Assembly: GCA_963674695.2 (NCBI GenBank)
Contig: CAXXGI010000002.1
Span: forward strand, 544,001-608,000
Direction of reading: 5' to 3'
DNA: 64,000 nt
Origin: a bacterium
GTDB taxonomy: Bacteria > UBA10199 > 2-02-FULL-44-16 > JAAZCA01
Below the pieces are notes generated by a model. The model ran no database searches, had not been told where the DNA came from, and saw nothing but the letters and a program-made list of their open reading frames with translations. Both the position numbers and the translations under genes were made by a program. This document shows, in pieces, positions 36,290 through 57,603 of the stretch; the first letter of the stretch is position 1; each line of letters opens with the position of its first letter.

Positions 36290-37639
36290 TCAGCTCTTTC
36301 CACTTTCGATGCAATTGCCGTGGCCGCAGTTGGCTTTCGGTGTCGGGATGGGGATTCCCAAGCGGTCGAGCGTCTGCAGGGAGGCGGCGCGCACCTGGGG
36401 GTCGTTGGCCTCAATTTTATTGAGCTGAAGTGCCTTGATGATATGGGTGCGAAGCTTGCCGTGTTTGACGCCGAGGATACCGATGAGCACCGTCGCTTCG
36501 CGCGTCCGGGCCAGATCCGGCGTTTGCTTCAGATTGAGGAACTGGGCGATGGCGCCGATCTCCGCAGTTATTGCCTGCGGGTTGTCGTTGGCAATCTCGG
36601 TGAGCGATTGGAAGGCCGCCATGGCGACGTTGGAAAAGGGGTCGCTGATGAGTTCGGCCAGGATTGCCACGCTTCCCTCGGCGACAAAGTCCTTGAGCCT
36701 GTTCGCGGCTGCCTCGCGCTTGGCGTTGTCGAAGTCCCTGCTCTGGACCTTGAGCGCCTCGAATGCCGTCCGCCGTTCCTCGCGCACGGCCGCTTCGATC
36801 ATGTTGTCCATTTCGGCGAGCTTCTCTTTGAGGCTTGTGGCGATTGTCTTCGTGTCCGCGGTGGCGTCCTCTTCGGATTTCGGTGCAAGCTCCTCTTTGA
36901 CGGGGTCCAGGTGCGTCGCGTCCTTCTGTGCGATCAGCAGGAGTTCTGCGGTCGCCGCATGGGCGACCGCAAGCTGTTCATCCTTCGTCAGGGAGACGAG
37001 CGTTTGTATGATCTCCGGATGGTGCGCATAGCGGGAGAGCCCCTCGATCTGTCGCGCCCGGAAACCCGGTTGTTTCGATGCGGATAGGGCGATCGCATGT
37101 TTTTCCCTGAACGCATTGCGCTCATCGTTCATCCGGATTGCGGTGACGAGTTTCGCGATATCATCGGCGCTGAGCTTTTCGGTGACAAGCTGTTCGACGA
37201 AGAGCCGCCCGATGACGTCTCGCGAGCTGTTGAGCGACAGCTCGGTCGAGGGGATCACCTCGGTAAAGACATCGATGAGCCGGTCGTCGATCTCGATGTC
37301 ATCGGGGCTCGGATGGATGAAGGGTTGGAGCGGTGCGAATGCAGGCGTGCTCATCACGATCTCGAAGAGCTGGTCGTCGGCGGAGATGCGGTCCGTGTCT
37401 CGGTCGTGTCCGGACATTCGCCTCCAGGCCTGCTGGTATTGGGCGAAGCTCAAGTCAGGCTTTGAAGGAAATTCAGGGATGGTGATCGTGCAATAATTGC
37501 TGCATTCATGTGCCGATTCCTTCGCTTGCGTGCAGGCGGTGATGAATTCGGGTTCATCCTCCAGCTCGCGCCCGAAGAGCTTCTTCTGCATCGCGCTGCA
37601 GATCGCGTGGGTCCTGATGTCGACGTAGGTGTTGCCCAT
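36290..37639 (-). CDS. HEAT-repeat orphan protein (paralogue of the upstream gene)
   Basis: Alpha-helical HEAT-like repeats (LVSLTKDEQLAVAHAA, LISDPFSNVAMAA); RBS AAGGAG; no signal peptide. Confidence 0.82.
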   Translation of the reverse strand: MGNTYVDIRTHAICSAMQKKLFGRELEDEPEFITACTQAKESAHECSNYCTITIPEFPSKPDLSFAQYQQAWRRMSGHDRDTDRISADDQLFEIVMSTPAFAPLQPFIHPSPDDIEIDDRLIDVFTEVIPSTELSLNSSRDVIGRLFVEQLVTEKLSADDIAKLVTAIRMNDERNAFREKHAIALSASKQPGFRARQIEGLSRYAHHPEIIQTLVSLTKDEQLAVAHAATAELLLIAQKDATHLDPVKEELAPKSEEDATADTKTIATSLKEKLAEMDNMIEAAVREERRTAFEALKVQSRDFDNAKREAAANRLKDFVAEGSVAILAELISDPFSNVAMAAFQSLTEIANDNPQAITAEIGAIAQFLNLKQTPDLARTREATVLIGILGVKHGKLRTHIIKALQLNKIEANDPQVRAASLQTLDRLGIPIPTPKANCGHGNCIESGKS

Positions 37640-37676
37640 GATCGTGCTCCTTTATCGTTTTGTCGTGGAGGCGATC

Positions 37677-39956
37677 TCACCATTCGTTGTGGTAAGACGC
37701 TGCCTCGACCTTCTGTTTGGTGCAGGTGCCGTTCCGGCAGCCGGTCTCGGGGGTTCCGGGCGATGCGCCCAAACGACCGAGTGTCTGAATGGAAGCGGCC
37801 TTGACCATGGTGTCGCTCGCATTTTCGGCGTTGAACCGGAGCACCTTGATGAGGTGGCTGCGGAACGCGCCGGGGGCGACGCCGACGACCCCGATGAGCG
37901 TCGTCGCCTCGCGCGTCTGCGCGGCGCTCGGGGACTGCTTCATATTGAGCAGCGGCGTGATCTGGTCGACGTATCGGGCCACGGCCTCCGGCTCGACCTT
38001 GGTGATCTCGGTGAGCGTCTGAAAGGCCGTCATGGCGACGTTGCTGAAGGGGTCCTTTGTCAGCTGGATCAGGACGGGCACGGCGCCATAGCCGACATAC
38101 CCTTTGAGCTCTTCGGCGGCTTCCTCGCGAGTGGCGTTGTCGAAATCGACCGCTTTGATTGCGAGCTCTTTAAATTCGCTGTTTTTTCGGTAGGCTTCGA
38201 TGAACAAGTCCTCTGCGGTGAGGTTGTCTTTGCCGACGACCCCGGCGATCGTCTTGAGCTGATTCTGTGTGAGCGGATGCGCTTTTCTTTCTTCTGTTCC
38301 GACAGTGACGGTGTCGAGCGCTTCGAGTGCGGCTTCGACGATCTCCTTGTCCGAGCTCGTGGCCGCTCGAATCAGGATGGGGACGGAACCGCGGTGCGCA
38401 TACTCGCCCAATTCTTTGATGGCCTTTGCGCGTTTTTCAATGTCCTCCTCGTTTTTGACCTCGTCGCACAGATGTTCAAATGCCAATTTCTCCTCGTAGA
38501 TATCTTCGAACGATTCCTCCGCGGAGAGATCGGCCTTGCCGACGACCCGGGCGATCGTCCGGAGCTGGCTCGGGCTGACGGTGACGGTGGCGCGATCGAG
38601 GGATGCGAGCGCCGCCCCGACGACGTCCTCGTTCGAATCCTTGACCAGGCGCATGAGGACCGGCGTGGCCCCCCGATCGATGCAATCGCCCAGCAGTTTG
38701 GCTGCACTCGCTCGTTTCTCGGGATCGGAGGAACGGGCATCCTGACACAGGACCGGGAAGAGGTCCTTCCGGTCGAATTCATCGGTGAAGTTGTGATCCC
38801 GGGTGACCTTGGGCAATCCGACGATGCGGGCGATCTGCGGCAGCAGGCCGTCGACGGCGCCCGTGACCGTCGTGTCTTCGTTATTCGAGAGGGCGTCGAT
38901 TTGGATCAACACGCCTCGGACGACCGTCTTGTCCGGATCCTTCAGGAGCGGGGCGACGAGATCGATCAACGTCATCGGGTGGAGAAATTCTTTGGCATAT
39001 TGAACGGCCTGCAGGCGATCTTTGGCATCGCTCGATTCGGTCATCCGCTGAATCGCCTGGGCCTGCATGCCGATCTTCTCTTCGATGAGCGCCTCCATCT
39101 CCGGCGAGATGGCCTCAGCATCTTTCTTCCGCATTTCGTCGAGCGCGCGCTTCGCGTCGAGGGCGGTCTCGATCTGATCGCAGCCGAGGATGGCCACGAG
39201 GGCAGGGACGATGTCGCCCACGTCGCTGTAGTCGGAGATATGGGTCAGTACGGTGCCCGGGTCGGTGGCGACCATTCCCTTCAAGGCTTCGAATTTCAAT
39301 TGGATGTATTTCTCTGCGCGCGTCTGCATCGCCGGCGAGATGTATTCGGGATGATCCTCCGCGATGGCCTTGAGCGCATCTTTCGCCGCCACGGCGACGC
39401 CGAAGTCCCGGTCATTCGTGAGCGCGACGAGTGTGATGATGGCGTTCGGGTGAACCGCATACTGCTTCAGATGAGAGACGGCGGCGAGACGATCCGAGCC
39501 CTGAAGGAGGGCCGCACCGGTGATGTTGGCGATTGAAGTGTTCTTTTCGGTTACCAAATCCACCAAGAGGTTGAGATCCTCAGTCGAGATCGTGGAATCA
39601 GCGGTCACATAATCTTGGTTGTTGTAGTTATAGCCGTCGCCCGTAAAAATGTGAGAGGCCCGTTCCTTGAGTGCGATATCCTCCGAAATCAGGGCGGTAA
39701 ACATTTCGCTCACCGAAAAATAATCGGCGAAGTCTCCTTGGCCGGCATATGTATCGAAGAGGGCGAGAGCTCGGTTTTGCTGATCTGTATCGGCGATCTG
39801 TTCTTGCAGATCGTCTCGCGAGATGGACGAACAAAAGGAGTTGCATGAGTTCCCCTCCCGACAACCCAGGTCTTCTCCAACCTCCTGTCCGAACAACTGT
39901 TGCTGGATGGCGCTGCACGTTTCGTATGATTTGAGTTTTACGGCTTTGTCGCTCAT
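37677..39956 (-). CDS. HEAT-repeat orphan protein with internal ~80-aa repeats
   Basis: Start reassigned to ATG 39956 (MSDKAVK, RBS GGGAGGA). Repeats such as LVKDSNEDVVGAAL and LTKDPFSNVAMTAF; no signal peptide. Confidence 0.85.
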   Translation of the reverse strand: MSDKAVKLKSYETCSAIQQQLFGQEVGEDLGCREGNSCNSFCSSISRDDLQEQIADTDQQNRALALFDTYAGQGDFADYFSVSEMFTALISEDIALKERASHIFTGDGYNYNNQDYVTADSTISTEDLNLLVDLVTEKNTSIANITGAALLQGSDRLAAVSHLKQYAVHPNAIITLVALTNDRDFGVAVAAKDALKAIAEDHPEYISPAMQTRAEKYIQLKFEALKGMVATDPGTVLTHISDYSDVGDIVPALVAILGCDQIETALDAKRALDEMRKKDAEAISPEMEALIEEKIGMQAQAIQRMTESSDAKDRLQAVQYAKEFLHPMTLIDLVAPLLKDPDKTVVRGVLIQIDALSNNEDTTVTGAVDGLLPQIARIVGLPKVTRDHNFTDEFDRKDLFPVLCQDARSSDPEKRASAAKLLGDCIDRGATPVLMRLVKDSNEDVVGAALASLDRATVTVSPSQLRTIARVVGKADLSAEESFEDIYEEKLAFEHLCDEVKNEEDIEKRAKAIKELGEYAHRGSVPILIRAATSSDKEIVEAALEALDTVTVGTEERKAHPLTQNQLKTIAGVVGKDNLTAEDLFIEAYRKNSEFKELAIKAVDFDNATREEAAEELKGYVGYGAVPVLIQLTKDPFSNVAMTAFQTLTEITKVEPEAVARYVDQITPLLNMKQSPSAAQTREATTLIGVVGVAPGAFRSHLIKVLRFNAENASDTMVKAASIQTLGRLGASPGTPETGCRNGTCTKQKVEAASYHNEW

Positions 39957-39995
39957 GTCTTCCTCCCGTGTGGTGTTTGCTGAAATGATATCTCC

Positions 39996-40022
39996 GTATC
40001 GCACTTCGCACGATTCTGTTGT
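39996..40022 (-). promoter_or_regulatory. Sigma-28-like promoter motif
   Basis: Minus strand ACAACA-N13-TGCGATAC, ~40 nt before ATG 39956. Confidence 0.55.
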
Positions 40023-40066
40023 GCGAAAACGTGTTCATCGCCCGAAAAAACGTCTGTGAAGAAATG

Positions 40067-42457
40067 TCATTCCGACATCATGTGGGCGGCGTCGATGGGA
40101 AACGGTTCCTCGATATCGCTGAGCGCATTCGGTGCCGGCGGTTCGGCAGTGGGCTCCGCATAGTCCCGTTTGAGGATCTCCGCGTCGGCGGCGAAGTGGA
40201 TGTGGGCCTGATACGGCCCGCTGTGCAGGAGCACGGCCTCCTCGCCGGTGAAGAGGTCGAGTTCGGGGAAGAGGGTGATCGCCGCGCGCGACGTGCTCAC
40301 ATCGATGTGCGGGGTGAGATCCCGATCCGAGGGGTCCAGGTTCCAGGGGGCCAGGATCTGGAGCTTGCCGAAGCGTTGGCTTGTTCGAGTGAGCCCCGAG
40401 TGGATGAGCTCGACGAGGAGGCAGGCGCCCAGGATCTGCTTCTGGTAGAGCCGGTCGAGGAGGACGTCGACGAGATAGCGCTCCTCGTCCCGGCTCGTAT
40501 GAGGCTTGGCGCCGAAGTGCGTCGTGATCAGCGTGCGCGATTCCTTGACGACGTCCTTGAAGATCTCCTTGCTGGCCAACCAATCGTCGTGAATGGTGGA
40601 GCGCGCTGCGTTCGGCAGGCGCACTTCGCGGAAGTCGATGGCCGTGCCGAAGCGGTGGTCGCTGTCCTCGTCTTCGCGATAGGCGCTGCTGATGCGGACG
40701 TAGAGCGGGCTCTTCTCCGTTGCCCCCGCGCGTTTGGCCACGCGTGCGAGCACCGGTTCGATGGCGCGGGCCAGTTCCGGCGTGACGCGGTTGGAGGTCT
40801 TCTTCGCATACTGGCGCTTGCCGTCGGAATCCGTGCTCGTCACCGTGGTCATGTTTGCGGCGATGGTGAACGTCTTCCCTTCGATGGGCACGAGCGTATC
40901 GTAGTCGACCGGCGGAATATAGGTGCGGCTGACGTGTCGACTCAGGCGCCGTCCGATGAGCGTCCGTCGACGATGCGCACGCGCGCGCGGCCAGCTCTTT
41001 TTGATCCGCCGTGCGGCCTCGGCGCCGAAGAAGGAGATGAATCGATCGTATTCCGGGGCGAAGCCATCCTGCTTGAGGCAGAACTCGAAGCCGGTCTTGC
41101 GTTGCCCGGTGACGTGCAGCCCGTAGGCCAGGAGCAAAACGTCGTTGGGGTCCTCGCTCTTCACCTCCTTGGCGAGTTTGACGAGCGCATCCCGGTCTTC
41201 AAACCGGGCGGCCAGGAGGATGAGCTCCGATTGCTTGACCTCGTCGAGTTGTTTGGGATCCGCGCTCCAGGCCTCGAGGAGCAGGTGATAGTAGAGGCGG
41301 ATGCGCGAGGTGCTGTCGTTTTCAAACTTCCATGCGCCCCCGGTGTGGGTCGGATAGATGATCCCTTCGAGTTCCACCTGGCTTTTGAGTTTCGGCTCGA
41401 TCTCGTTCGTGCGCGTCTTTTCGAAGACGATCTCGAAGTCGCCCTCCAGAGCGAGATCGCGGCCGACGATGATGTCGAGCGCCGCCGGGAGCGCGACGAT
41501 CGATTCCTCGGTCTTCCCCCGCGGGCGTTCGCGGCGCCGCACGTTGGGATCGGTGGTGGCCACTTCGAGCGTGTCGGTCGTTCCCGGAACCCCGTTCATC
41601 TCCGGCAGGAGCAACGGGCGCATCTCGCCGCCGGCGATGCTCGCGCCCGTGCCGATGCCGGCGCGGTGCAGGTAGTGGAGCCAGACGGCGGAGAAGGCGT
41701 TCTCATCCCCGTGTCCGTGCAGCAGGACGTTGAGGGCGCCATGTCCGTTCATGTACGGCGCGTGGTGTCCGCAGGAGAAGATTCCCCCGCGGGTGAAGAG
41801 AAATCCGTAGACGAGTGCGGCGCGTTCGGCCGTCGGCGAGACCCCCCACGGATGGTCGAGCATCCGGCCGATGCCTTCGAACGATTTTGAGGGGCGGCTC
41901 TGCGGCAGCTTCTTCAGCCAGGCGTCGAAGATACGGTCGAGCGACTCGAGGCGGGCACCCGCGCGGCGGGCGAGCTTCAAGGGATCGGGGGCGGGCCCCT
42001 TCGGCTTCGATGCGCGTTCGCCGTCTTCGATCTCCGGCAGGCCGTCGATCACGATGTCGGTGGCCATCGGCGTGAGCTTTGCGTGTTCGGCCATGAAGAT
42101 CTGCATGGCCAGGACGAACGAGAGGATCTCTTTTTCCTGGATGGCCTTGTTGCGCAGGGCGCGGTAGTCGGCCGCGCTCTTCACGCCGCGCAGGATGTCG
42201 TAGTAGCGCGTGACCGTGCTCGGGCCGGGTTTCTTCTCCGGCGCCTTCGGCGCGGGCGTCGGTTTCGATGCCGCGGAAGGGTGCGGCGATGTGTGCGCGC
42301 CACGTTTCGGGACGTCCGAGATGAGCGATCTGACCGCGTCGATACCCTGCTTGATGAAGGAGGAACTTTTCTCCTGCGGCGCGGGATCTTCCTCGTGCGG
42401 CGTCGCGGCGACGGCCTGTCGAAGGAGGGCGGAGAGGGTCGTGCCGGTGATGGTCAT
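40067..42457 (-). CDS. Orphan protein with a C-terminal peptidase M15-like (LAS Zn-peptidase) motif set
   Basis: ISSAYR...SDHRFGTAIDF...HIHF; Pro/Lys-rich N-terminus; start overlaps the upstream stop (ATGA). Confidence 0.72.
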   Translation of the reverse strand: MTITGTTLSALLRQAVAATPHEEDPAPQEKSSSFIKQGIDAVRSLISDVPKRGAHTSPHPSAASKPTPAPKAPEKKPGPSTVTRYYDILRGVKSAADYRALRNKAIQEKEILSFVLAMQIFMAEHAKLTPMATDIVIDGLPEIEDGERASKPKGPAPDPLKLARRAGARLESLDRIFDAWLKKLPQSRPSKSFEGIGRMLDHPWGVSPTAERAALVYGFLFTRGGIFSCGHHAPYMNGHGALNVLLHGHGDENAFSAVWLHYLHRAGIGTGASIAGGEMRPLLLPEMNGVPGTTDTLEVATTDPNVRRRERPRGKTEESIVALPAALDIIVGRDLALEGDFEIVFEKTRTNEIEPKLKSQVELEGIIYPTHTGGAWKFENDSTSRIRLYYHLLLEAWSADPKQLDEVKQSELILLAARFEDRDALVKLAKEVKSEDPNDVLLLAYGLHVTGQRKTGFEFCLKQDGFAPEYDRFISFFGAEAARRIKKSWPRARAHRRRTLIGRRLSRHVSRTYIPPVDYDTLVPIEGKTFTIAANMTTVTSTDSDGKRQYAKKTSNRVTPELARAIEPVLARVAKRAGATEKSPLYVRISSAYREDEDSDHRFGTAIDFREVRLPNAARSTIHDDWLASKEIFKDVVKESRTLITTHFGAKPHTSRDEERYLVDVLLDRLYQKQILGACLLVELIHSGLTRTSQRFGKLQILAPWNLDPSDRDLTPHIDVSTSRAAITLFPELDLFTGEEAVLLHSGPYQAHIHFAADAEILKRDYAEPTAEPPAPNALSDIEEPFPIDAAHMMSE

Positions 42458-45336
42458 TTGGCACCTCCCTTTTTGCCCACCGTCCCCTTCAGGGAGCTCG
42501 TACCGCTGCCGATCTGAACCTGTCCTTTGATGCGATGATTTTTTCCCTGATACGTGGCGCTGTCGGCGATGTGGAACGAGCCGGTGAACATGCGCCGGGT
42601 GATCGCGTAGGTCGCCCAGTAGACGAGCCCTTTTTTCGTGCGGCGCGTGCCGTAATCGCTCTGGGGAAGCGCGAGCGTCATCGCGCCCTTGCGCGCGATC
42701 TTGAGCCGTTGCGGAAACTGCGCCGACGCGTTCTGCTTTTCGAAGAGCGCGCGCTGCTCGTCATCGCCGTCGAGGTCGACGGCCAGTTCCACGCGGACAT
42801 CGTCGCCCAACGTCACGCGTTTCACGGCATTGTAGGCGCGGATGGATGTGGCCTGGGCGGGGATGATGGCGGTGCGGGCCTCGAACTGCGTCTCGTCGCC
42901 GACACCCTCGAGCTTACCCGAGAGGCTCGTGTCCGACACGAACGACGCCAGCGGCGAGAGCGACATCGGCACGGACACGGGGAACTCCATGCTCTCCTCC
43001 GGCATCGACATGGCCACCCCTTCCCCCTCCGGCGCGGTTGTCTTGGCGGCCTCATCTGCTTCCGGTTTCTTTGTCGCATCCGATGACGCCACCGCGGTTT
43101 TCGGCTTCGGTCGGGGCGGTGGCGGGTTTGGAATCATCATGGCCAGCCGGAAGGGATTCGGGTCGCCGCCGGCCAACAGAAGCCCCGAGGCCTTGACGGG
43201 CAGGTCGTAGGTGTAGCAGCCCTGATGGATCGCCATCGTGCCGTCGGAGAGGCGGTAGACGCCCTTCAAGAGGCCCATTCCCTCGATCAGGCAGATGCGC
43301 GCGTCGTCGACGAAGAGCTCCTGGCCGGGGCTGAAGTCGAGTATATCCTCTTCGCTTATCCGCGAGGCGCGTTCGACGTTCATCGTCACATCGCCGGTGC
43401 ACGGGTAGGCGTCGTAGTCCTCGTTGCGTTCGCACTGGCGCCGATAGCCGACGATGAACGGGGTCGTCTCGTCCATGAAATGGGAGAGCGCGGCGGCTTC
43501 AAAGGCGCAGTGGGCTTCGCCGTCGCCTTCGATCTGGAAGCGGACCTTGCCCTGTTCGAGGGTGAAACGGGCCTGATCGACCGTGAGCGCCAGGACGTTC
43601 TTTCCCGGGAGGGTGTAGCGCCCGTTGGAAAACCCCTGAAACGGCGGCAGGTCCCATTCATAGCGGTAGACCCCTTCGTCCTGCCCCGGGGTGACGTGCC
43701 GCTCGATGTCGCAGTCGCGCGTGACCTGGCGCTTCGGCGTGACGACCGTATCGAGCGCGTTCCAACTCAAATCGGCACCGCGGTCTTTGCCCTGCACGTA
43801 GAGCGTGGCGCCCAGGACCACCGGTTCGTCCTGTTTGTATGTCTTCTTGGTCAGACCGATGTCGTAGACGGTTACGCGGCTGGTGTCGTTGTGCACGTCG
43901 AAGTCGACGCGGAACGGGATGTCGCTCACCTCGATCTCGTGTTCGATCTCGAAGGTCATGCCCCGCTCGATGCCGTCGAAGGAGCAGTGGCCGTTCTGCG
44001 CGAGGTATTCCGGGACGGTGATGTCCATCCGATAGGTGCCCGTCGAGATCTCGCGCAACTCGTCGTGGGGATAACAGACCCGCATCGGCGTCGGCCTCTT
44101 CTCGAAGATGTCGACGGTGCAGTCGAAGCAGGCGCCGATATCGTCGATGTTGTGTGAGGTGATGTGCGGGGTGTGCTCCTCCGAGTCGGAATGGATGTAG
44201 AGGAAGAGCGAGATCAGCATGCCGGGGGAGACGGGATACTCCTTCGTGTGCCAGGGGTCTTCGTTGAAGACCGTCGAGACCTCCAGCTGGGAGGTGGGAT
44301 CGAGCGCGAGCAGCGATCCGATCGCGTTCGGCGTGATCCAGAAATCCTCGTGTCCCCAGCTGATGCCGTCGAAGACGGAGAGCCGCACGGAGATGGCGGC
44401 GGATTCCGTGTGCGGGACGAGCATCCGCGCGACCGATGCGTTTTGATCTTTCCACCGGATGCGCGAGGATCCCTCAAGGGTATGCCAGAAGAACTTGAGC
44501 GGCGTGCGCTTCTTGGGGTCCGGGTGCGCGTCGGGATCAGAGCTCTCGCGCCCGTCGAGCGTCACCCAGGTGCCGCGCAGGACCTTCTTCGGATAGACGG
44601 CCTTTGCCACCGGGGGTTGGTTTTCACGAATGTTGACGATGCCGCTGCCCAGGTGTTTGGGATCCTGGCAGGCCCAGATCAGTTCGCGAAATCGTTCGAG
44701 ATAGGCCTCGGGCGCATATGGGATCATGCTGAATGCCGTGTGGTGGACGTTATCCTCCCGCGAGGAGAGCACGGCATGCGGGTTGAAATAGCAGACCTCT
44801 TCGATGTTATCCGCGTTTTTTCCCATGTTGCGTACGAGGAAGGTGCGGGTGATCATTTCGAGCAGGGTGTCCGCCTTCGTATCGGCGGGTCCGAGCACGT
44901 TGATCTCTTCGCCGACGAGGTTGATGTCGAGCTTTCCGGCGTCTTTGAGGAGTTTGAGGCTCTCCTTCAGGATATCGTTGGTCCGGTTGGTGAGGCGCGC
45001 CCCGACCTTGTCCTGAAAGGAGATGATGCTGCGCGGTTCGAGCCCGAGTTCCCCGATCAGGAAGGAGATGGCGTGCTCGGTGCGGGCAAAATCGTCGGGT
45101 TCGCTCGCATGATCGCGGAAGATGGTCCAGCTGCGGTCGAGGATATCGCGGACGAACGCCCGTAAGGATTCGTTGTCCAGCTGTGGTCCCGAGGGCATGA
45201 AGTACTCTTCCTGCTCGGCCACGATCGCCAGCGGCATGTCGCCCGCGGACGGAGGACGTCTTTCAAGGTCCATGACCGAGATGTATCCCGGGACCTTCGG
45301 TTGGATGACGTCAGGTTTTTTTCCGCCAGCGTGCAT
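42454..45336 (-). CDS. Large orphan protein with a PKD/REJ-like Ig domain
   Basis: NQPPVAKA...VTLDGRESSDPD...LKFFW...LSVFDG; RBS AGGAG; no signal peptide. Confidence 0.78.
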   Translation of the reverse strand: MHAGGKKPDVIQPKVPGYISVMDLERRPPSAGDMPLAIVAEQEEYFMPSGPQLDNESLRAFVRDILDRSWTIFRDHASEPDDFARTEHAISFLIGELGLEPRSIISFQDKVGARLTNRTNDILKESLKLLKDAGKLDINLVGEEINVLGPADTKADTLLEMITRTFLVRNMGKNADNIEEVCYFNPHAVLSSREDNVHHTAFSMIPYAPEAYLERFRELIWACQDPKHLGSGIVNIRENQPPVAKAVYPKKVLRGTWVTLDGRESSDPDAHPDPKKRTPLKFFWHTLEGSSRIRWKDQNASVARMLVPHTESAAISVRLSVFDGISWGHEDFWITPNAIGSLLALDPTSQLEVSTVFNEDPWHTKEYPVSPGMLISLFLYIHSDSEEHTPHITSHNIDDIGACFDCTVDIFEKRPTPMRVCYPHDELREISTGTYRMDITVPEYLAQNGHCSFDGIERGMTFEIEHEIEVSDIPFRVDFDVHNDTSRVTVYDIGLTKKTYKQDEPVVLGATLYVQGKDRGADLSWNALDTVVTPKRQVTRDCDIERHVTPGQDEGVYRYEWDLPPFQGFSNGRYTLPGKNVLALTVDQARFTLEQGKVRFQIEGDGEAHCAFEAAALSHFMDETTPFIVGYRRQCERNEDYDAYPCTGDVTMNVERASRISEEDILDFSPGQELFVDDARICLIEGMGLLKGVYRLSDGTMAIHQGCYTYDLPVKASGLLLAGGDPNPFRLAMMIPNPPPPRPKPKTAVASSDATKKPEADEAAKTTAPEGEGVAMSMPEESMEFPVSVPMSLSPLASFVSDTSLSGKLEGVGDETQFEARTAIIPAQATSIRAYNAVKRVTLGDDVRVELAVDLDGDDEQRALFEKQNASAQFPQRLKIARKGAMTLALPQSDYGTRRTKKGLVYWATYAITRRMFTGSFHIADSATYQGKNHRIKGQVQIGSGTSSLKGTVGKKGGAK

Positions 45337-45363
45337 GAAATTCTCCTGTGGCTGTCTCTTTCA

Positions 45364-45390
45364 TTATCGGCAGGAGATTCGATTTGCTGT
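45364..45390 (-). promoter_or_regulatory. Sigma-28-like promoter motif
   Basis: Minus strand ACAGCA-N13-GCCGATAA (exact FliA -10 box), 27 nt before ATG 45336. Confidence 0.65.
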
Positions 45391-45480
45391 GTGGTTTCTC
45401 GGATGGCGGGGAAAAAAGAGAAGACAGCTGTCTACATCGTCCATTGAATCGGATGGGGTCGGCCGTTTTGATGTGTCCCA

Positions 45481-46083: not shown

Positions 46084-46098
46084 GACGACTTCCTTCCG

Positions 46099-46698
46099 TC
46101 ACAGGGGAAATGCGATGGGCCGGCAGGACATCCCCACCTTCACCTCGTTGATGAAGACGCGGAAGCTCACGTCGCCGTTTTTTGCGGTTCGTTTGACGAT
46201 GATATCCTCGCGCGCGTCGTCGTCGATATCGACGACGGCGATCGCGATGGCCCCAACGGTGTCGGCGTCAAACGATGCGATTATGACCTCATCTCCATTC
46301 GCCTCCATCATTTTGTTTGGCTGGGCGAAGATGCTGATCGAAGCTGATCCTCGCGTGTCGACCGAAGATCGGGTCGAGATCAGGATGTCCTTGAAGGCAC
46401 GGCATCCTTTGTCCTGGGTGCGCTTCGCATCGGCGACGGCGCCGAAGACCCTTCCGGAATCGCTGAAGATGAGGTTCGCGAGTCTCTCGCGCTTTACGGT
46501 GGTTTCCCGAAAGTGTAGGTCCAACTGGGCGCGCATGCTCTGGCCGTTCGGACAGAGCGGCCCCTCCTTCGATGACTGATGCTGATAGAGCGTGCAGGTC
46601 TTCTCTCGCCACGGCGATTGACACTGGACGTGAAAGGTTCCCGCGGGGCGGTAGCTGGTGGTGCAGCTCCCCGGCATGATGATCGGCCTCGGTTCCAT
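46099..46698 (-). CDS. Hypothetical protein with an FG-GAP-like DxDxD loop
   Basis: Start reassigned to ATG 46698 (RBS AGGAGGT); VVDIDDDAREDIIVK; C...VQC....KTC. Confidence 0.72.
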   Translation of the reverse strand: MEPRPIIMPGSCTTSYRPAGTFHVQCQSPWREKTCTLYQHQSSKEGPLCPNGQSMRAQLDLHFRETTVKRERLANLIFSDSGRVFGAVADAKRTQDKGCRAFKDILISTRSSVDTRGSASISIFAQPNKMMEANGDEVIIASFDADTVGAIAIAVVDIDDDAREDIIVKRTAKNGDVSFRVFINEVKVGMSCRPIAFPL

Positions 46699-46729
46699 GT
46701 GACCTCCTGATGATGGCGTTCCTCTCTCT

Positions 46730-46757
46730 TCATCGCACAGAAGCGAGCATTTGTTGC
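46730..46757 (-). promoter_or_regulatory. Sigma-28-like promoter motif
   Basis: Minus strand GCAACA-N14-TGCGATGA, ~31 nt before ATG 46698. Confidence 0.5.
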
Positions 46758-47011
46758 GATGAATTGCTGAAACGGTCGGAAAAATCCGCCAGAAAGGGCG
46801 GTCATGGGGGGGCGGCGATGTCATTGCCTCGTCACTGGCCGGGTCAGCTCCGACCCTCCCTGCACGGCAAACGCCGTCTCTGCGTCGATGGCGATCTGGC
46901 ATGAAAATTGCTCTTTTCTGCTCTCGTGGGGTATTTGTCATTTGGATTTTGTCATTTAGATTTTGCGGTACTCTGTTTTGTTGCGGATGAAGCTGGATCG
47001 GGGGAGGGGTC

Positions 47012-47858: not shown

Positions 47859-48006
47859 AGACAGCGTCCGGCAGTGTGTTTGGAGGGGATCTCTTCTTTC
47901 ATCGCAATCGAAGCCTCTAATGCTGCGATGAAAGAAGAAAAAGCCGTCGAGGCGGCGTTTGAGCCGAGATGGCGGTCCCCGTAAAACACACTGCCGGACG
48001 CTGTCT
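47859..48006. repeat. Palindromic element, copy A (96-bp core shared with 49209-49358)
   Basis: Outer IR AGACAGCGTCCGGCAGTGTGTTT; core 47885-47980. Confidence 0.85.
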
Positions 48007-48068
48007 CACTTGTGCTCCATGTTTTTCCGCGATTGACTCTCGTGCGTTGGCTGTGGTTCACTGGCGGC

Positions 48069-49142
48069 ATGACACCGACACTGAGCCTCTCTCGTTTTCC
48101 GACCGACATTGCGTTTGATTCGGCCGTCACCGTACTGGCGCATGCGCCGGGGTTTGTCGCCATCGATGGGCGGGGAGCCGTTGGGCGCGATGGCCGATTC
48201 TCCGTCGTGGCCAAAGCGCCCACGCGCACCTTTCGTCTCGCGGGCGGCTTCATCATCACCGATGGTCATCCCACGATCGATACGCCGGCCGAGGCGCTGG
48301 CGCGTTTTTTCGAGGAGACGGCGCGTTTTCCCTATGATGCCAATCTCCCGTTTTCGGGCGGGGCGATCGGTTTCGTCGGGTTCGAGGGCGCGGCGGCGTT
48401 GCGCGGGTTTGAACCGGCCCAGGGTTTTTCCCGTCTGCCCCAGTGTCAGTTCGGTATCTACGATACGGCATTCGTCTTCGATCATGCCGAGGGGACGGCC
48501 TCGATTGTTGTCGCCGCCTCCAGTGAATATGCGGCCAGGCGCCGTGCACTGGTGTTGGAGGATGAGGTCAACTCCTGGCGTCCTCCCGCAGGGCCGGAGT
48601 CGTTCGATCCGCTGGCCGCGCAGGAAATCCGCTCGTTCCCCGATACGAACACGTTGCGCGGGCTCGCGCACGATGCACACAGCTGGGTTCGTTCCGAGGT
48701 GCTCTCGCACGTCCACCTGGTGCGCCATCGCGAAACCCCGGCCGATGCGCGCAGCATCGTCGCGTCGTTCCTGCAGGCTTCGTCGTCCGGTTCGGTGCGC
48801 GCGCTTTTCATGCACGAAGGGGCGGGGTTCATTCTGGAATCCGGCGAAGGCGCCGTGCGCGCATACGGCGACCATGCGGAATGTACCGCGTCGTTCATCG
48901 GGCAGTTTCCGTCGGCAGCGCTTACCGGTGCGCCGCTCGATCGTGCCTATACCTTTCTGCATCGGCACGAATCGACGCATCGCCAGTTCTACGGCGGTGG
49001 TTTCGGATGCGTCGAAAAGGGCGCCTGCTCGTTTCGCACGACCCAGCGCGCCGAGATCTTCGCCGATGGACTCAAACGCACGACCTCCGGCGTCGACCTG
49101 ACGGCCTCGTCCGATCCCGCACAATGCTGGGTCATCTCCTAA
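48069..49142 (+). CDS. Degenerate anthranilate synthase component I / PabB-like protein
   Basis: LPFSGGAIGFVGFE, FPSAALTGAP, HESTHRQFYGGGFG; shortened C-terminal domain; start uncertain. Confidence 0.7.
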   Translation: MTPTLSLSRFPTDIAFDSAVTVLAHAPGFVAIDGRGAVGRDGRFSVVAKAPTRTFRLAGGFIITDGHPTIDTPAEALARFFEETARFPYDANLPFSGGAIGFVGFEGAAALRGFEPAQGFSRLPQCQFGIYDTAFVFDHAEGTASIVVAASSEYAARRRALVLEDEVNSWRPPAGPESFDPLAAQEIRSFPDTNTLRGLAHDAHSWVRSEVLSHVHLVRHRETPADARSIVASFLQASSSGSVRALFMHEGAGFILESGEGAVRAYGDHAECTASFIGQFPSAALTGAPLDRAYTFLHRHESTHRQFYGGGFGCVEKGACSFRTTQRAEIFADGLKRTTSGVDLTASSDPAQCWVIS

Positions 49143-49208: not shown

Positions 49209-49358
49209 ACCCCTTCATGCGGATAGATATGTGCAGGGGATCTCTTCTTTCATCGCGATCGAAGCCTCTAATGCTGCGATGAAAGAAGAAAAAGCCGTCG
49301 AGGCGGCGTTTGAGCCGAGACGGCGGTCCCCGAAACATATCTATCCGCATGAAGGGGT
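49209..49358. repeat. Palindromic element, copy B
   Basis: Perfect 24-bp outer IR ACCCCTTCATGCGGATAGATATGT; core 49236-49331 differs from copy A at two positions. Confidence 0.85.
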
Positions 49359-49422
49359 GAAGGAAGCGCGTGCAGATGCCGCATTCGTTTTCAAACGCGC
49401 ACGGCTGTGGTAAGGGATCGGT

Positions 49423-51866: not shown

Positions 51867-51906
51867 AACTTTCCTGGAATCGCATGGTTTTCATCAAATG
51901 ACCGAT

Positions 51907-52009
51907 GGGCATCTCTAAAAACCTGTCTTTTGGTTGTCACCCCCGCCTGCCCTGACCTTACCCCATGCGGGAATGACAAAACCAAAAAAAGCAGTTTTTA
52001 GAGGTACCC
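51907..52009. mobile_element. MITE-like element: GGGCA(T)CTCTAAAAAC ends around a degenerate dRS3-like hairpin
   Basis: Ends match 22631-22760; inner TGTCACCCCCGC...GCGGGAATGACA at 51935-51978. Confidence 0.65.
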
Positions 52010-52235
52010 CGATGAGATTGAAACTTCTTCATTTAATCATTTTGAAGCAGCGATCGAAGGAAAATGAGGGAGATTATCTTTTCCACCTCATCGCACACTT
52101 TGTTCGCTCGCTCGAACTTCACTTTCTGAAGCGAGTATGGTTGTGAGTGGAAGTCCAAACGCTTTACACCCTTTCATTCGTGATGCTATCCCTCGGCTTC
52201 ATCTGCAGTCAAACCACTCTTTTAAGGAGGCCGGA

Positions 52236-53492: not shown

Positions 53493-53620
53493 GCCAGTCA
53501 GGCCAGTCAGGCGAGACAGATAGAGATTGTCATTCCCGCGAAAGCGGGAATCTCGCTTTTGCTGATACATCGAGATCCCCGCTTTCGCGGGGATGACAAT
53601 CAAGGGTTGTCAGTAATCTG
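53491..53620. repeat. Nonamer repeat (AGGCCAGTC), dRS3-like double hairpin (53528-53598) and a GTCAGTAATCTG end
   Basis: Read directly; the same nonamer occurs inside hemW. Confidence 0.8.
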
Positions 53621-53652
53621 GCGGGCGGGGCGAAAACCCCGCCCGCTTTTTT
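53621..53652 (+). terminator. Intrinsic terminator after gdhA
   Basis: GCGGGCGGGG-CGAAAA-CCCCGCCCGC-TTTTTT. Confidence 0.85.
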
Positions 53653-53718
53653 CTCTTCGAGCGGTGTCATCCTCGTAACCCTATGAAATAACTAAAATAA
53701 AAACCTGCAAAATAGAAC

Positions 53719-53745
53719 GCAACATTTTCGCTCATCGGACGAGAA
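53719..53745 (+). promoter_or_regulatory. Sigma-28-like promoter motif
   Basis: GCAACA-N13-GACGAGAA, ~63 nt before ATG 53809. Confidence 0.5.
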
Positions 53746-53808
53746 CCCTTATGGACATTTTGACATTGCCATCGGGCCTCCCTGCGGGGGCTCCAAGGAG
53801 GGTTCCTC

Positions 53809-55581
53809 ATGAGTGGGATAAGTTGCATGTCGAGCGATGTGCGTGAAGCGGGTGCCGGTTTTGGGGTCAGCGGTCTCGATGCTGATTCCTTTGAAGTGCT
53901 CAAACAGTTTTGGCTGAAATCCTATTTTTCCAGCAATAGCGAGGCCGCCGCCGATATCGACGAGTGGGATTGCCTCTCCTCGAACGATCCGAACGATTTT
54001 TCGCGCGTCACCTTCGACGACATCTGTCACGAGGATACGTTTTTCACCTCGGTTGATCGCACATTCGCCAATCAGTCCTATGACAGCGCCGATGGATTGG
54101 ACGACGGCTCCGAGCAGAAAAAAATCTTCGACGGGCTCACTGAGGTCAAGGCGGACCGCTGGTTTCCGACGACGGTCTATTACTTCGGCGCCCTGCGCGA
54201 CATGGCCACCATGCGCGACCTGGTGATCGAGAAGGGAAAGAATGCCGGGAGCAAAGAGACGGTCGCCAAAATTTCGGATGAGGAAAAGCGCGACGCCGCA
54301 GCCAGGGCCCTCGATCGCAAGGAGGCAGTCGAGAAATATACGGCAGCGATGATGACCTCGTTTCAAAAACATGCGGGCGGACCGAATCCGTGGGATGGGA
54401 TGCGGGAACTCATCGAATCGATCGCTCCGCGTTCGCTGAATCGTGGACCGATGTCTACGGCGAGTAACGCGCTCAATGCAGGAAACAAGCCCTTCAGCGA
54501 TGTGCTCGAAGCGGCCTGGGCGTTCAACAAAGCCGACACGATGGGGCTCACTACCATCCTGCTCGCGCGCGAGGCGGAAGCGGATCTGCGCGCGGCCATC
54601 GATGCCTTCTTCTGTAAATCGCCCGCGTCGATCGCCGCCTTCGAGGAGGAGCGTGCGCGCCTGATCGGGTATGTGCTTGCCGCGGAAGAACGTTTCATCA
54701 GTGTAATCGATCAGCATGGGGCGAATGCCGTCGGCAAAATCGAGCTCTTCGCCGAAATGGCGCGCATGATCGAGCGCGAGACGACGCTCACGCGCGTCTG
54801 CGACGGCTCCAATCGCCTGGCAAAAACGCTGCGCCGCAAGCTCAATGCCGTCGCCAAACCTCTGAAAACCAAGATCGCGACGATTCGTCAGGACGATTCG
54901 TTCGACCTGAATACGGTGAAGGGGCATCTGAGCGCGGCGCGCAATCTTCTCTCCGGGCACATCACCCCAGCGGGCACCGTGCGCGCGAACCTGAATGCGC
55001 GGCAGCGGGCAATCGCGGAAGCGCTCGTGCAGATGATCGAGACGATGGATCGGGGGCTGGGGATCTTCGGCCTCGAGTGCAAGCCGTGGGCATATCCGAA
55101 CGCCGACTATACGAAGTGCATCATCACCGAGGGCAGCTGTGCCAAGGTCGATGCCGTTCTCGAGGGGGGGAAATGCGTCTGCCCGCCGGGGAAGGGTTGG
55201 AGCAGCGACGATCCGGAAACGGCCACCTGCATTCCAACAAAGGAGGCCTGCTTCGAGGCCGAGATGGGATGGGATGCCTCGGCCAAGGTCTGTATCGATT
55301 GCGCCTCGGTAAACAAGGTCTTCCGAAAGAACAAGGGATGCGTCGATCGGTCTGTGAAAAAAACAACGAAGCCAAGGGGAGGGGCGAAGAAGAAGGCGGA
55401 TGCCCCACCGCCGCCGCCGCAGGATGATGCCCCGAAGCCCAAGAAGTGTGTGAAGCCCAAGACCGCCACCGCCGGCGAGCGCTTTGGATTCTCCCCCAAG
55501 GAGAGCGAGGCCTACAAGGGCAAGCAGGTCGAGTATCGCAAGTGCCTGAAGCACAATCGGAGCCTGAAGCAACAGCAATAA
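53809..55581 (+). CDS. Orphan protein with helical core and Cys-rich/Pro-rich C-terminus (paralogue A)
   Basis: RBS AAGGAGG; shares SNDP..V.FDDIC, WF..T.YYFGA.R, WDGM.ELIE and TA.ERF with the next gene; no signal peptide. Confidence 0.85.
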   Translation: MSGISCMSSDVREAGAGFGVSGLDADSFEVLKQFWLKSYFSSNSEAAADIDEWDCLSSNDPNDFSRVTFDDICHEDTFFTSVDRTFANQSYDSADGLDDGSEQKKIFDGLTEVKADRWFPTTVYYFGALRDMATMRDLVIEKGKNAGSKETVAKISDEEKRDAAARALDRKEAVEKYTAAMMTSFQKHAGGPNPWDGMRELIESIAPRSLNRGPMSTASNALNAGNKPFSDVLEAAWAFNKADTMGLTTILLAREAEADLRAAIDAFFCKSPASIAAFEEERARLIGYVLAAEERFISVIDQHGANAVGKIELFAEMARMIERETTLTRVCDGSNRLAKTLRRKLNAVAKPLKTKIATIRQDDSFDLNTVKGHLSAARNLLSGHITPAGTVRANLNARQRAIAEALVQMIETMDRGLGIFGLECKPWAYPNADYTKCIITEGSCAKVDAVLEGGKCVCPPGKGWSSDDPETATCIPTKEACFEAEMGWDASAKVCIDCASVNKVFRKNKGCVDRSVKKTTKPRGGAKKKADAPPPPPQDDAPKPKKCVKPKTATAGERFGFSPKESEAYKGKQVEYRKCLKHNRSLKQQQ

Positions 55582-55609
55582 GATGATGATTGAAGTCGAA
55601 TCGACGTTG

Positions 55610-55645
55610 CGGGATGGATCGAGCCTCTTCGATCCATCCCGTTTT
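55610..55645 (+). terminator. Intrinsic terminator
   Basis: CGGGATGGATCGA...TCGATCCATCCCG-TTTT. Confidence 0.75.
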
Positions 55646-55706
55646 CTATTCCAGGGCGTCTCCTCATTTGACTGCAACCTCCTCAAACAAAAGAAGACTT
55701 GATTGT

Positions 55707-55777
55707 TGTCATCCCCGCGAACGCGGGGATCTCGATCTGTTGTGTAAAGCGAGATTCCCGTTTTCACGGGAATGACA
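55707..55777. repeat. dRS3-like double hairpin
   Basis: TGTCATCCCCGCGAACGCGGGGATCTCG...CGAGATTCCCG...CGGGAATGACA. Confidence 0.8.
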
Positions 55778-55877
55778 CCTTAGAGACTGAGGATATGCCA
55801 TAACCCGCTCATTTTTCACCGCAAAATAGAAATGTCCCTAACTACCTGAAATAACTTGTAAATTCCCCAAAAAGTGC

Positions 55878-55904
55878 GCAACAAATGGCAGCCGATACCG
55901 ATAA
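55878..55904 (+). promoter_or_regulatory. Sigma-28-like promoter motif
   Basis: GCAACA-N13-ACCGATAA, ~64 nt before ATG 55969. Confidence 0.65.
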
Positions 55905-55968
55905 GACAGGTGGAAGGGCACGGGCGCTGCCGGTCGGCGGTGTTTCTCTATCATCAAGGAGGGGTTCA

Positions 55969-57603
55969 ATGGGTGGTCCCAATAGTTGCAAGTCAGCGGA
56001 TGTTCCTGCCGCATTTTCTGTTCCCGGTTTGCGCTACGAGAGCTTCGAGGCGCTCAAGGAATATGGCATCCTCAAGGATGCGGGCAAATGGGAGTGCGCG
56101 GTTTCGAACGATCCCGATGCGCCTCGTTCGGTTTCGTTCGATGACATCTGTTCCAATGACCAGGACTTTTTCTTTCCTAATCTGAATCGCGGTTTCAAGG
56201 ACGCCGCCGGAGTGGGGCATGGCTACGATACCAGCGACAGCACGGGCGAGGGCGAGGCGCAGAAGAAGGTGTACACTGCGCTCAACGGTCTCGGTGCCTC
56301 GAAGTGGTTCGCCGATACGACCTATTATTTCGGCGCGATGCGCGGCGTGTCGAATTCATCGGAGTACGGGGCGAAGATGGGGGCCGAGCTCAAGGCGAGC
56401 ACCGGCTACCGTTGGGACGGCATGCTCGAGCTGATCGAGACGATCGGGACGAACATATTGCCGTTTAAAACGTTGAACGTTGCGCTGAATTCACCCACCA
56501 AAACCGATTTCGACGATGTCGTCCGCGCCGCCTGGAACTTCAATCAGGCCAATGTGGACAACCTCTATTCGAGCGTGCGCTATGTGCGCGCGGTGGAAAA
56601 ACTCGAGGATGACCTGAGGGCGTTCACGTCGAGCTCTATGGATCTGGATGCATTCGAGTCGAGCCGGGCGCGCATCCTCGAGGATCTCGAGCAGGTCGAA
56701 CAGGCCTACCTCTCGGTTGTGGCACGTGCGAGTTTGTCTCAAGACGGGATGGGAGCGACGATCGAGAATTTCCGAGAAAGGATCGAAAATATGTCATCCA
56801 CATCCGGTGTTCGTGGACAGGTGGACGGACGAGCCTTGCAGAATAGGGTTGATATCATGAAGGAGTTTTCGGCGATCTGCATCGAGAAGGTGAAGGAAGC
56901 GAAGACCGATATCGCTGCGGTGAAGGGGAGTCTTACGACAGCTCAAAATTATCTCGAAGGGAATGATGCGATCACCCCGAAGATCGGAGCCTCCGGGACG
57001 GTCCTCGTTCAAATGGATCCGGAGCAGGAACACATCATGAAGGCGCTCCACAGGATGCTCGACCTTTTCGAGGGCGGACTCGATCGCTTCGAGGGGATCC
57101 AGTGCGAGAAGCCGTGGGAAGAGGCGAAGGGTAAGCAATGTGTTGCCACAGATACCAGCTGCGCCAGAATCGGTGCGGTGCTCGAAGAGGGTGCGTGTGT
57201 CTGTGTCGCGCCGAAGGTGATGACCGGTTCCGGAAACGACAAAAACTGTGCCTTTACCAAAGAAAGCTGCTTCGCCGCGAAAAAGGGTTGGGATGCCGGC
57301 ACCAGTACCTGCATCGATTGCAACCCGCAGACGCAGAAATTCAAAACGAATGTCGGCTGTGTCAATAAACAGACGCAGCCGCCCGATGCAGGCACCAGCA
57401 GGACGCAGCGGAACAATCCGCCGCCACTGCCGGAGCAGGAAGATTCCGCTGATGATACGCCGCCTCCTCCCCCGCAACCGGAGGATTGTGGTGACAGGCC
57501 ACCGAAGCCGACGGCGTCGGAAAGGTTTTCCAGCGATTCCGCCGATAAGGCGAAGGTCAAAAAGTTCAATGCGTACATGAAGTGCAAGCGCAACAATCGA
57601 TGA
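55969..57603 (+). CDS. Orphan protein with helical core and Cys-rich/Pro-rich C-terminus (paralogue B)
   Basis: Start reassigned to ATG 55969 (RBS AAGGAGG; MGGPNSC aligns with MSGISC of paralogue A). Confidence 0.85.
   Translation: MGGPNSCKSADVPAAFSVPGLRYESFEALKEYGILKDAGKWECAVSNDPDAPRSVSFDDICSNDQDFFFPNLNRGFKDAAGVGHGYDTSDSTGEGEAQKKVYTALNGLGASKWFADTTYYFGAMRGVSNSSEYGAKMGAELKASTGYRWDGMLELIETIGTNILPFKTLNVALNSPTKTDFDDVVRAAWNFNQANVDNLYSSVRYVRAVEKLEDDLRAFTSSSMDLDAFESSRARILEDLEQVEQAYLSVVARASLSQDGMGATIENFRERIENMSSTSGVRGQVDGRALQNRVDIMKEFSAICIEKVKEAKTDIAAVKGSLTTAQNYLEGNDAITPKIGASGTVLVQMDPEQEHIMKALHRMLDLFEGGLDRFEGIQCEKPWEEAKGKQCVATDTSCARIGAVLEEGACVCVAPKVMTGSGNDKNCAFTKESCFAAKKGWDAGTSTCIDCNPQTQKFKTNVGCVNKQTQPPDAGTSRTQRNNPPPLPEQEDSADDTPPPPPQPEDCGDRPPKPTASERFSSDSADKAKVKKFNAYMKCKRNNR

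Follow-up and report, generated by a model that had tools for sequence, protein, structure and literature searches.

A genome-wide sigma-28-type promoter class and its probable sigma factor in the type III secretion cluster of an uncultured bacterium

Promoter sites and genes of the window

The stretch of DNA analysed here, which we call the window, comprises 64 000 nucleotides of a bacterial contig (C2:544001-608000), and belongs to a genome of 3.03 Mb with 58% G+C that is held in three contigs and rated 100% complete. Eight genes of the window, coding for the proteins designated A to H, fall by the coordinates of their open reading frames (ORFs) into five transcription units (B-A, D-C, F-E, G alone and H alone), and each unit is preceded by a bipartite site with the appearance of a sigma-28 promoter (Table 1). 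The window sites are off-consensus copies of a promoter that recurs throughout the genome, aCGCAACTT-N11-nGCCGATAAt. In our estimation the five sites quite probably represent one sigma-28-type promoter class with ~200 members in this genome, read, as we infer, by a FliA/WhiG-like sigma factor of 289 amino acids encoded in a cluster of type III secretion system (T3SS) genes.

An initial annotation, made from the sequence of this DNA, had listed five bipartite sites lying 27-64 nt before the start codons. All five are present at the coordinates that it gave, and the distances, taken as the gap that separates the -10 box and the start codon, are confirmed; the start codons behind all five sites carry Shine-Dalgarno-like sequences. 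Its view that an alternative sigma factor with a new -35 element is at work also agrees with our results, in that a sigma-28 -10 box is combined with a non-canonical -35 box. The element proposed, RCAACA, proved to be an off-consensus form of the consensus CGCAACTT. Likewise, the motif that was taken to be common to five units is strong in three of them and at the background level in the other two. The site before G is positioned after a terminator-like hairpin that trails a glutamate dehydrogenase gene, and the candidate site before the B-A operon has an orientation and a position that suit a promoter.

Table 1. Candidate promoters and protein-coding genes of the window, with positions numbered within it.
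Feature	Position	Strand	Details
Strong sigma-28-type promoter, GCGCAACAA-N11-TACCGATAAGA	55876..55906	+	24.6 bits; before protein H; 64 nt to ATG 55969
Strong promoter, ACGCAACAT-N11-GGACGAGAACC	53717..53747	+	19.0 bits; before protein G
Strong promoter, ACACAGCAA-N11-TGCCGATAATG	45362..45392	-	19.7 bits; before D-C operon; perfect GCCGATAA -10 box, 27 nt from ATG 45336
Weak candidate promoter, GCACAACAG-N11-GTGCGATACGG	39994..40024	-	13.5 bits; before B-A operon; 40 nt to ATG 39956
Weak candidate promoter, TCGCAACAA-N12-GTGCGATGAAG	46728..46759	-	11.8 bits; before F-E operon; 31 nt to ATG 46698
Protein A, 449 aa, HEAT repeat, MG start	36290..37639	-	Pfam HEAT_2 6.7e-09; 37-nt gap behind B
Protein B, 759 aa, HEAT/ARM repeat	37677..39956	-	Pfam HEAT_2 5.8e-30; N-terminal score 0.37
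Protein C, 796 aa orphan, C-terminal LAS/M15-like zinc-peptidase signature	40067..42457	-	4-nt overlap with the end of D
Protein D, 960 aa orphan, leads D-C operon	42454..45336	-	No Pfam family over cut-off
Protein E, 200 aa orphan, one D-x-D-x-D..D-I-I-L-K loop	45481..46083	-	No Pfam match
Protein F, 199 aa orphan, leads F-E operon	46099..46698	-	No Pfam match even at E<=10; 15-nt gap to E
Protein G, 590 aa, mostly helical, Cys-rich C-terminal module	53809..55581	+	AlphaFold2 (AF2) pLDDT 63
Protein H, 544 aa, starts MGGPNSC	55969..57603	+	32% identity to G over full length

A promoter class across the genome and its relatives

A two-block weight matrix, refined on intergenic matches of at least 15 bits only, was applied to the whole genome, of which 14.0% is intergenic in the sense of lying outside crude gene calls. 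The matrix consensus is aCGCAACTT-N11(12,13)-nGCCGATAAt. At 20 bits or more the genome holds 202 matches, 150 of them intergenic (binomial p 2e-83), whereas three genomes simulated with a second-order Markov model gave 2, 1 and 5. The corresponding numbers are 263 matches with 176 intergenic at 16 bits or more (simulated 36-41), and 490 with 211 intergenic at 12 bits or more (simulated 265-272); the excess over simulation amounts to ~200-225 sites. The genome also contains 142 exact copies of the octamer GCCGATAA, of which 55 are intergenic against an expectation of 14%, and GCAAC(T/A)T stands ~20 nt upstream of most of these 55. Among 203 strong matches, 173 are followed within 150 nt by the beginning of a same-strand ORF of at least 100 aa, 136 of these with a Shine-Dalgarno-like site, and the start codon lies at a median distance of 38 nt. 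In 141 of the 203 the spacer measures 11 nt, in 29 it is 12 nt, in 32 it is 13 nt and in one 14 nt; conservation is confined to the two boxes and does not extend to the spacer. The initial annotation looked to an enrichment of the motif over background, which is borne out by these counts; its picture of a small local system of eight proteins is not, since the promoters number ~200 and are conserved class-wide.

The class 3 flagellar promoters of FliA (sigma-28) in E. coli and Salmonella have the consensus TAAAGTTT-N11-GCCGATAA. The promoters of the window genome resemble them in the -10 box GCCGATAA, with C-C-G-A-T-A-A at frequencies of 0.63-0.98 in the matrix, in a -35 box that starts 19-20 nt before the -10 box, in the family of the sigma factor and in the presence of a promoter on the sigma factor's own operon, as is the case with fliA and flgM. 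They differ in the -35 box, here CGCAACTT: the block aCGCAACTT replaces TAAA(G), and it matches TAAAGTTT in the central AA and the trailing TT only. Further differences are the KSWTSR helix of the sigma factor, the lack of any flagellin or rod/hook gene among those found, and a count of ~200 promoters as against about a dozen or two. The canonical arrangement TAAA-N14-16-GCCGATAA has no occurrence genome-wide, and no description of an aCGCAACTT/CCGATAA promoter turned up in the open-access library that was searched.

Conservation was followed in 93 species genomes from 24 families of the same GTDB class. The exact string GCAACTT-N12-14-CCGATAA occurs in 91 of the 93, in 2-57 copies each, and the reversed control gave three matches in total. 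We also compared 19 loci carrying a related sigma gene, all from metagenome-assembled genomes labelled as Deltaproteobacteria, Myxococcota/Myxococcales, Pseudomonadota, Victivallales or plain 'bacterium', with G+C contents of 43%-64%. In 14 of them, matches of at least 20 bits stand upstream of the sigma gene on the same strand (28 matches in 188 kb), and in 12 of these 14 the two strongest lie 2.0-2.4 kb apart, like the sites before the Z180 and X141 genes of the window genome described below. Of the five loci without matches, four offer <1.9 kb of DNA ahead of the sigma gene, and the fifth is an outlier of 40% identity.

These data bear directly on whether the five sites could be chance matches or remnants of repeats or mobile elements, an explanation to which we give almost no probability. 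The genome is indeed rich in short intergenic repeats, and two of the five sites, those before B and F, score at the background level: between 10 and 14 bits, intergenic DNA is not enriched for matches over the whole genome, and chance matches of at least 12 bits number ~270 per genome, or ~0.004 (0.4%) per 100-nt upstream stretch. With no intergenic enrichment at their scores, the B and F sites are plausible weak members of the class, not demonstrated ones. Against this explanation stand the excess of matches over the simulated genomes, boxes that are conserved around a spacer that is not, and the recurrence of the motif at matching positions across a wide range of G+C, with a reversed control near zero. 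For the motif class, chance origin is refuted; it could apply only to the two weak sites, taken singly.

A FliA/WhiG-like sigma factor in a type III secretion cluster

The gene of the 289-aa sigma factor is embedded in a non-flagellar T3SS cluster with the order Z180, TPR chaperone, SctJ, motif site, X141, sigma, Y165, FliG-like, SctL, SctN, SctO and, further along, SctQ/FliN, FliO-like, SctR, SctS and SctT; SctV is encoded apart from the cluster (FHIPEP, 786 bits). The core export apparatus (SctV, N, J, L, O, Q, R, S, T) is present, with matches to YscJ_FliF, FliH/SctL, the T3SS ATPase, YscO-like, FliP, FliMN_C, Bac_export_3 and Bac_export_1, and X141, Y165 and Z180 belong to no Pfam family. 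In this genome, rated complete, neither Flagellin_N nor Flagellin_C nor Flg_bbr_C has a match, and no flagellin or rod/hook genes were found. The initial annotation had supposed a non-Sec route of export together with an alternative sigma factor of FliA/WhiG type; a non-Sec export machine is encoded, with one such sigma gene inside its cluster. Motif sites precede both the Z180 operon (C3:4376, 29.2 bits) and the X141-sigma operon (C3:7672, 30.0 bits), and this placement before two T3SS operons, the sigma factor's own included, suggests a self-reinforcing circuit. The FliG-like gene (FliG_M and FliG_C, C3:9988-11052) and the FliO-like gene (C3:16558-16893) are a flagellum-like trait of the cluster; such genes are uncommon in injectisome clusters.

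A search of the genome with the FliA/WhiG model returned four sigma-70-family genes. The 289-aa protein (C3:8530-9399) has the make-up of a group 3 factor (regions 2-4), and FliA_WhiG is the NCBIfam model that scores highest on it, with 132.4 bits against 81 for SigB/F/G and 38.5 for RpoD_Cterm; its nearest solved relatives are WhiG and FliA. The second gene is RpoH-like, the third forms the C-terminal domain within an 888-aa protein for which the RpoD/RpoS models are best, and the fourth lies at C2:625640-626251 in an open frame of 598 aa. Judging from three of these four genes, which were compared, the 289-aa protein appears to be the only FliA/WhiG-like sigma factor in the genome. In the recognition helix of region 4.2 it has LSKSWTSRLH, whereas solved WhiG and FliA have ESRVSQ(I/L)H, so that the ESRVSQ type of the family is replaced by KSWTSR. 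In 11 aligned sigma factors of the clade, down to 40% identity, the helix is LSKSW(T/V)(S/C)R, with no variation in L-S-K-S-W and R and with at least 90% T and S at the two positions that separate W from R. The fit between these two changes suggests that the altered -35 box goes with the altered recognition helix. The promoters would offer a natural case in which the -35 specificity of a sigma-28 factor changes with its recognition helix, which may be useful both for an understanding of orthogonal sigma/promoter pairs and for their engineering.

Sigma factors of the 289-aa type occur in 91 of the 93 class genomes and in 63 of the 63 good ones. FHIPEP is found in 90 of the 93, and the sigma gene often lies no more than 10-20 kb away from it; such proximity (~10-20 kb) was seen in at least seven members. 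Sigma factor, motif and T3SS are conserved class-wide, and most of the genes that the promoters precede are lineage-specific and without Pfam domains. Some members have two or three FHIPEP genes (e.g. G055, G064, G002, G087), which raises the possibility that a true flagellum coexists with the T3SS in part of the class; one of the copies scores ~860-890 bits, as against ~785 for the class-wide copy.

The motif might have another reader: the 888-aa sigma-like protein, a sigma factor of the extracytoplasmic function (ECF) group or a regulator that binds DNA at bipartite sites. We consider this very improbable. The 888-aa protein does have sigma regions 2-4 and itself stands behind a motif site of 25.0 bits, yet it is nearer to RpoD/RpoS (128 bits) than to FliA, and the -10 box is the hallmark of the sigma-28 family. 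The fixed orientation, the spacer classes and the median distance to the start codon suit a promoter and not an operator. Moreover, sites stand before the operon of the 289-aa sigma factor in 14 of the 19 relatives, and its changed helix pairs with the changed -35 box. The 888-aa protein (G000 C3:148026-150692; L097:8667-11330) has its sigma-70 regions at the C-terminus, behind an N-terminal extension of 650 aa without a Pfam family, and its place behind a motif site makes a sigma cascade possible.

For the 289-aa sigma factor, the neighbouring gene suggests a switch. In most relatives a poorly conserved, fast-evolving ORF of 127-164 aa, here called ORF W, lies between X141 and the sigma gene (e.g. 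L011:5317-5697, L010:5383, L017:5017, L020:5221), and in these relatives the switch may operate through an anti-sigma factor of FlgM type encoded beside its target. In the complex modelled for L011, ORF W is bound to the sigma factor with an ipSAE of 0.78 (best of three controls 0.00), although this pass may show likeness rather than binding because sigma-28/FlgM complexes have already been solved; of 80 solved complexes 58 attain this mark, as do 2 of 110 mismatched pairs. The runs share at least 57% of contacts, the partner pLDDT is at least 56, and in the model the C-terminal half of ORF W wraps around sigma regions 2-4. ORF W resembles FlgM as it is known from its solved complexes with sigma-28 (1rp3, 1sc5) in that in most relatives it immediately precedes the sigma gene, and in its embrace of regions 2-4 as modelled for L011; it differs in having no sequence similarity to FlgM. 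Against the window genome the Pfam FlgM model gave a best E of 0.12. In that genome the X141-sigma gap of 360 nt holds a repeat element. A palindromic intergenic repeat was noted at L005:8230-8340 (X141-sigma gap), at ~35700-36400 and 55600-55770 of the window and in several gene spacers; it translates to ..IPAFAGMT.. and ..RDSRFRGND.. on opposite strands.

Content of the regulon and possible export of the eight proteins

Within the promoter programme the eight proteins of the window are unexceptional members. None has a hydrophobic N-terminus, the best ten-residue Kyte-Doolittle mean being 0.37-1.44 by our heuristic as against ~2.0-2.2 for signal-like segments; none combines an RR motif with a hydrophobic stretch, and upstream alternative starts add no hydrophobic segment. 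The initial annotation, which had described the eight as orphans lacking Sec and Tat signals, is supported on both counts, the targets being lineage-specific. Protein D has no match (E<=1e-5) in any of the 92 other class genomes. Its one paralogue in its own genome is followed by a paralogue of C, both of them behind a 26.1-bit site by way of an upstream gene. Two relatives of protein C were found at E<=0.001 among 1.84 billion representatives and none by a word-indexed search, and protein G has one weak match in 12 other genomes of the family (G001, of another genus), which carries matrix matches of 22.1 and 21.5 bits upstream. Proteins A and B are paralogous (40% identity over 254 aa), and E and F are distant paralogues (24% identity, E 9e-8). 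G and H belong to a family with four members in the genome, G included, across which one Cys near residue 6 does not vary, nor do Cys residues at the C-terminus.

Extracellular-type features had also been attributed to these proteins. The paired Cys residues and the DxDxD loops are visible, and so is an M15 signature, below threshold in Pfam; the PKD domain assigned to D is without Pfam support, as no PKD family appears even at E<=10 and REJ (E 0.24) and DUF3224 (0.007) stay below their cut-offs. The weak PKD-like Atlas neighbours of D score 0.76-0.79, under the 0.9 mark. Zinc ligands of the LAS/M15 type are H-x(3-6)-D and H-x-H within a matching fold. The signature of C reads SSAYR..H..G.A.D followed by H-x-H, of which H-x2-G-x-A-x-D and H-x-H are invariant with respect to the sole homologue of the domain; Extensin-like_C matches both proteins in the same profile region at sub-threshold E values of 0.022 and 0.19. 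An AF2 model of this domain made without an alignment has a pLDDT of 42 and is unusable for the fold, and a profile of the domain against PDB sequences gave ferritin noise only. Protein G, modelled from five sequences, consists largely of long helices, and Foldseek gave no match to it in the PDB at E<=0.001. Salmonella SipD occupied the top Foldseek row with an E of 0.095 and a TM score of 0.12-0.19, and we do not regard it as evidence for the fold.

In a census of 110 regulon proteins, 88 Pfam families were counted as against 180 for 110 motif-less neighbours, an indirect measure that counts families per set and whose control set includes operon mates of regulon genes. The named families include SLT, LysM, M23, M15_2, S8 and C25 peptidases, RHS, PilZ and GGDEF. 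At residues 2-26, signal-less regulon proteins contain more S, T, P, N, Q and G (38.1% versus 31.3%, p 1e-8) and less L, K and R, and MG starts are over-represented (27 of 173 in the regulon versus 82 of 1895, an odds ratio of 4.1 with p 8e-8). A family of ~15-20 proteins starts with MG....R(R/Q)QC-x(12-14)-C-x(6)-C; many of its members are directly behind motif sites and the rest are in the same clusters (G000 C2:249-262 kb, C2:82806, C2:91368, C1:971861, C3:205661 and others). The early Cys pattern of A and B resembles that of this family.

From these observations we envisage that the promoter programme would be turned on together with the secretion machine, that many signal-less members of the regulon may be T3SS substrates and that the remainder would be envelope and surface proteins exported by Sec. 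That some or all of the eight window proteins are T3SS substrates we hold to be possible, stopping short of calling it probable, and the description of the eight as an effector arsenal is plausible. A bolder proposal, which we consider rather unlikely, is that the injectisome kept a sigma-28/FlgM checkpoint after loss of the flagellum, so that export of the fast-evolving anti-sigma factor by a working apparatus would free a CGCAACTT-specific sigma factor for ~200 lineage-specific cargo promoters, some of them serving proteins that are candidates for injection and bear N-terminal acylation motifs of eukaryotic type.

A realistic competing explanation, somewhat short of an even call, keeps the promoter class and the sigma factor and takes the eight proteins not to be cargo of the T3SS. 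The regulon would then be a broad life-stage programme in which the T3SS is one co-regulated module, and its products would remain inside the cell or be exported in other ways. Bdellovibrio bacteriovorus provides the precedent with its FliA-driven attack phase: 92 of 140 attack-phase promoters carry TTAAG-N16-CCGATA, and the genes behind them include proteases, surface proteins and many uncharacterised genes (PMC3627812). Sigma-28 is there a global life-stage regulator on a scale near our ~200 sites, although Bdellovibrio has a near-canonical TTAAG -35 box and a flagellum, whereas in the window genome the -35 specificity is new, a flagellum is missing and the sigma gene is embedded in the T3SS cluster. 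In the regulon itself, Sec-like and lipoprotein-like starts are as frequent as in the genome at large; it also contains proteases, enzymes acting on peptidoglycan, proteins of the PilZ and GGDEF kinds, very large proteins and a second sigma-like protein, and A and B, with their HEAT repeats, might reside in the cytoplasm. Against a mere life-stage programme stand the location of the sigma gene inside the T3SS cluster and its proximity to FHIPEP in several class members, the motif before T3SS operons, the compositional bias of the signal-less N-termini and the rapid turnover of the cargo, which is effector-like.

Returning to the proposal that the T3SS-linked sigma factor reads this promoter class, with possible T3SS substrates among the products, a number of points weigh against it. 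The link between sigma factor and motif is drawn from family, position and co-occurrence; the sigma factor scores below the TIGR02479 cut-off of 189.6 bits; the two weak window sites are at the background level; and gene calls, start choices and the signal-peptide test are home-made heuristics. Three sequencing runs, from one study, contain the region, with none on record as RNA. In the window genome no ORF W lies in the gap between X141 and the sigma gene, which is its syntenic place, and neither tblastn nor a profile of 11 sequences found a homologue elsewhere. Three genes with a secretin domain are present, the best of which reaches 123 bits with YscC against a cut-off of 238; a dedicated T3SS secretin was not established, and neither a needle nor a translocon gene was recognised. 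Signal-like N-termini are found in 42 of the 173 regulon proteins (24%) versus 559 of 2068 (27%) genome-wide, and lipobox-like N-termini in 17 of the 173; with such Sec-like and lipoprotein-like starts the regulon is not purely a T3SS effector set, and the enrichment for signal-less proteins that the initial annotation had put forward as a check did not materialize, Sec-type starts not being depleted. The motif precedes six of the 12 longest genes (1831-3770 aa), whose products would in our judgement be unusual T3SS substrates. The Cys-rich modules of G and H, for their part, look extracellular in type.

The sigma programme likely works like that of HrpL and the hrp box, an analogy of function and not of family membership. 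HrpL is an ECF sigma factor with a different box; the 289-aa factor is of group 3, FliA/WhiG-like, and not of the ECF group (group 4), and is therefore not a member of the HrpL family. The present regulon is, moreover, several-fold larger and class-wide. In Pseudomonas syringae, Erwinia and Dickeya, the alternative sigma factor drives T3SS and effector genes through one recognisable box, and this hrp box can be used to list candidate effectors genome-wide (PMC3879358, PMC2957411). Should the checkpoint proposal be true, the box described here would be a class-wide 'hrp box' for the almost wholly unknown effectors of 90-odd species, and a host- or prey-dependent lifestyle would be indicated. 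The sigma-28 promoter of Chlamydia keeps a TAAA-type -35 box. Chlamydia trachomatis offers a likeness as a non-flagellated bearer of a T3SS with sigma-28 and late developmental genes, and one study puts its sigma-28 regulon at two genes (PMC10597470), whereas here there are ~200 promoters and a new -35 box. What distinguishes the present system from expanded FliA regulons such as that of Bdellovibrio and from HrpL is a -35 box and recognition helix of new specificity, the lack of a flagellum, a sigma gene inside the T3SS cluster alongside FliG-like, FliO-like and FlgM-like genes, and a class-wide distribution with fast-changing cargo.

With CGCAACTT-N12-GCCGATAA as a simple sequence key, ~7-10% of genes can be picked out per genome in ~90 uncultured species. 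The majority of them lack a known domain, and through the key they would be connected with a single regulator and a single secretion machine. The occurrence of FliG-like, FliO-like, sigma-28 and FlgM-like genes in the T3SS cluster of an organism without a flagellum has a bearing on the origin of injectisomes from flagella, and the content of the regulon (proteases, peptidoglycan enzymes, giant proteins, MG starts) hints that the class lives by contact with other cells.

Two further features of the window were noted. Two near-identical 28-nt copies of GCAGCATTAGAGGCTTCGAT[C/T]GCGATGA, at 47897-47928 and 49246-49277 (-), flank an anthranilate-synthase-like gene at 48012-49142; they fit the loose pattern of the initial annotation, and the single one that appears in the matrix listing scores 10.1 bits. 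An ORF of 12,808 codons (38 kb) occupies positions 1-21167 (+) of the window and begins 17.3 kb before it, at C2:526741; two 1000-aa pieces of it belong to no Pfam family, and no motif site stands before it.

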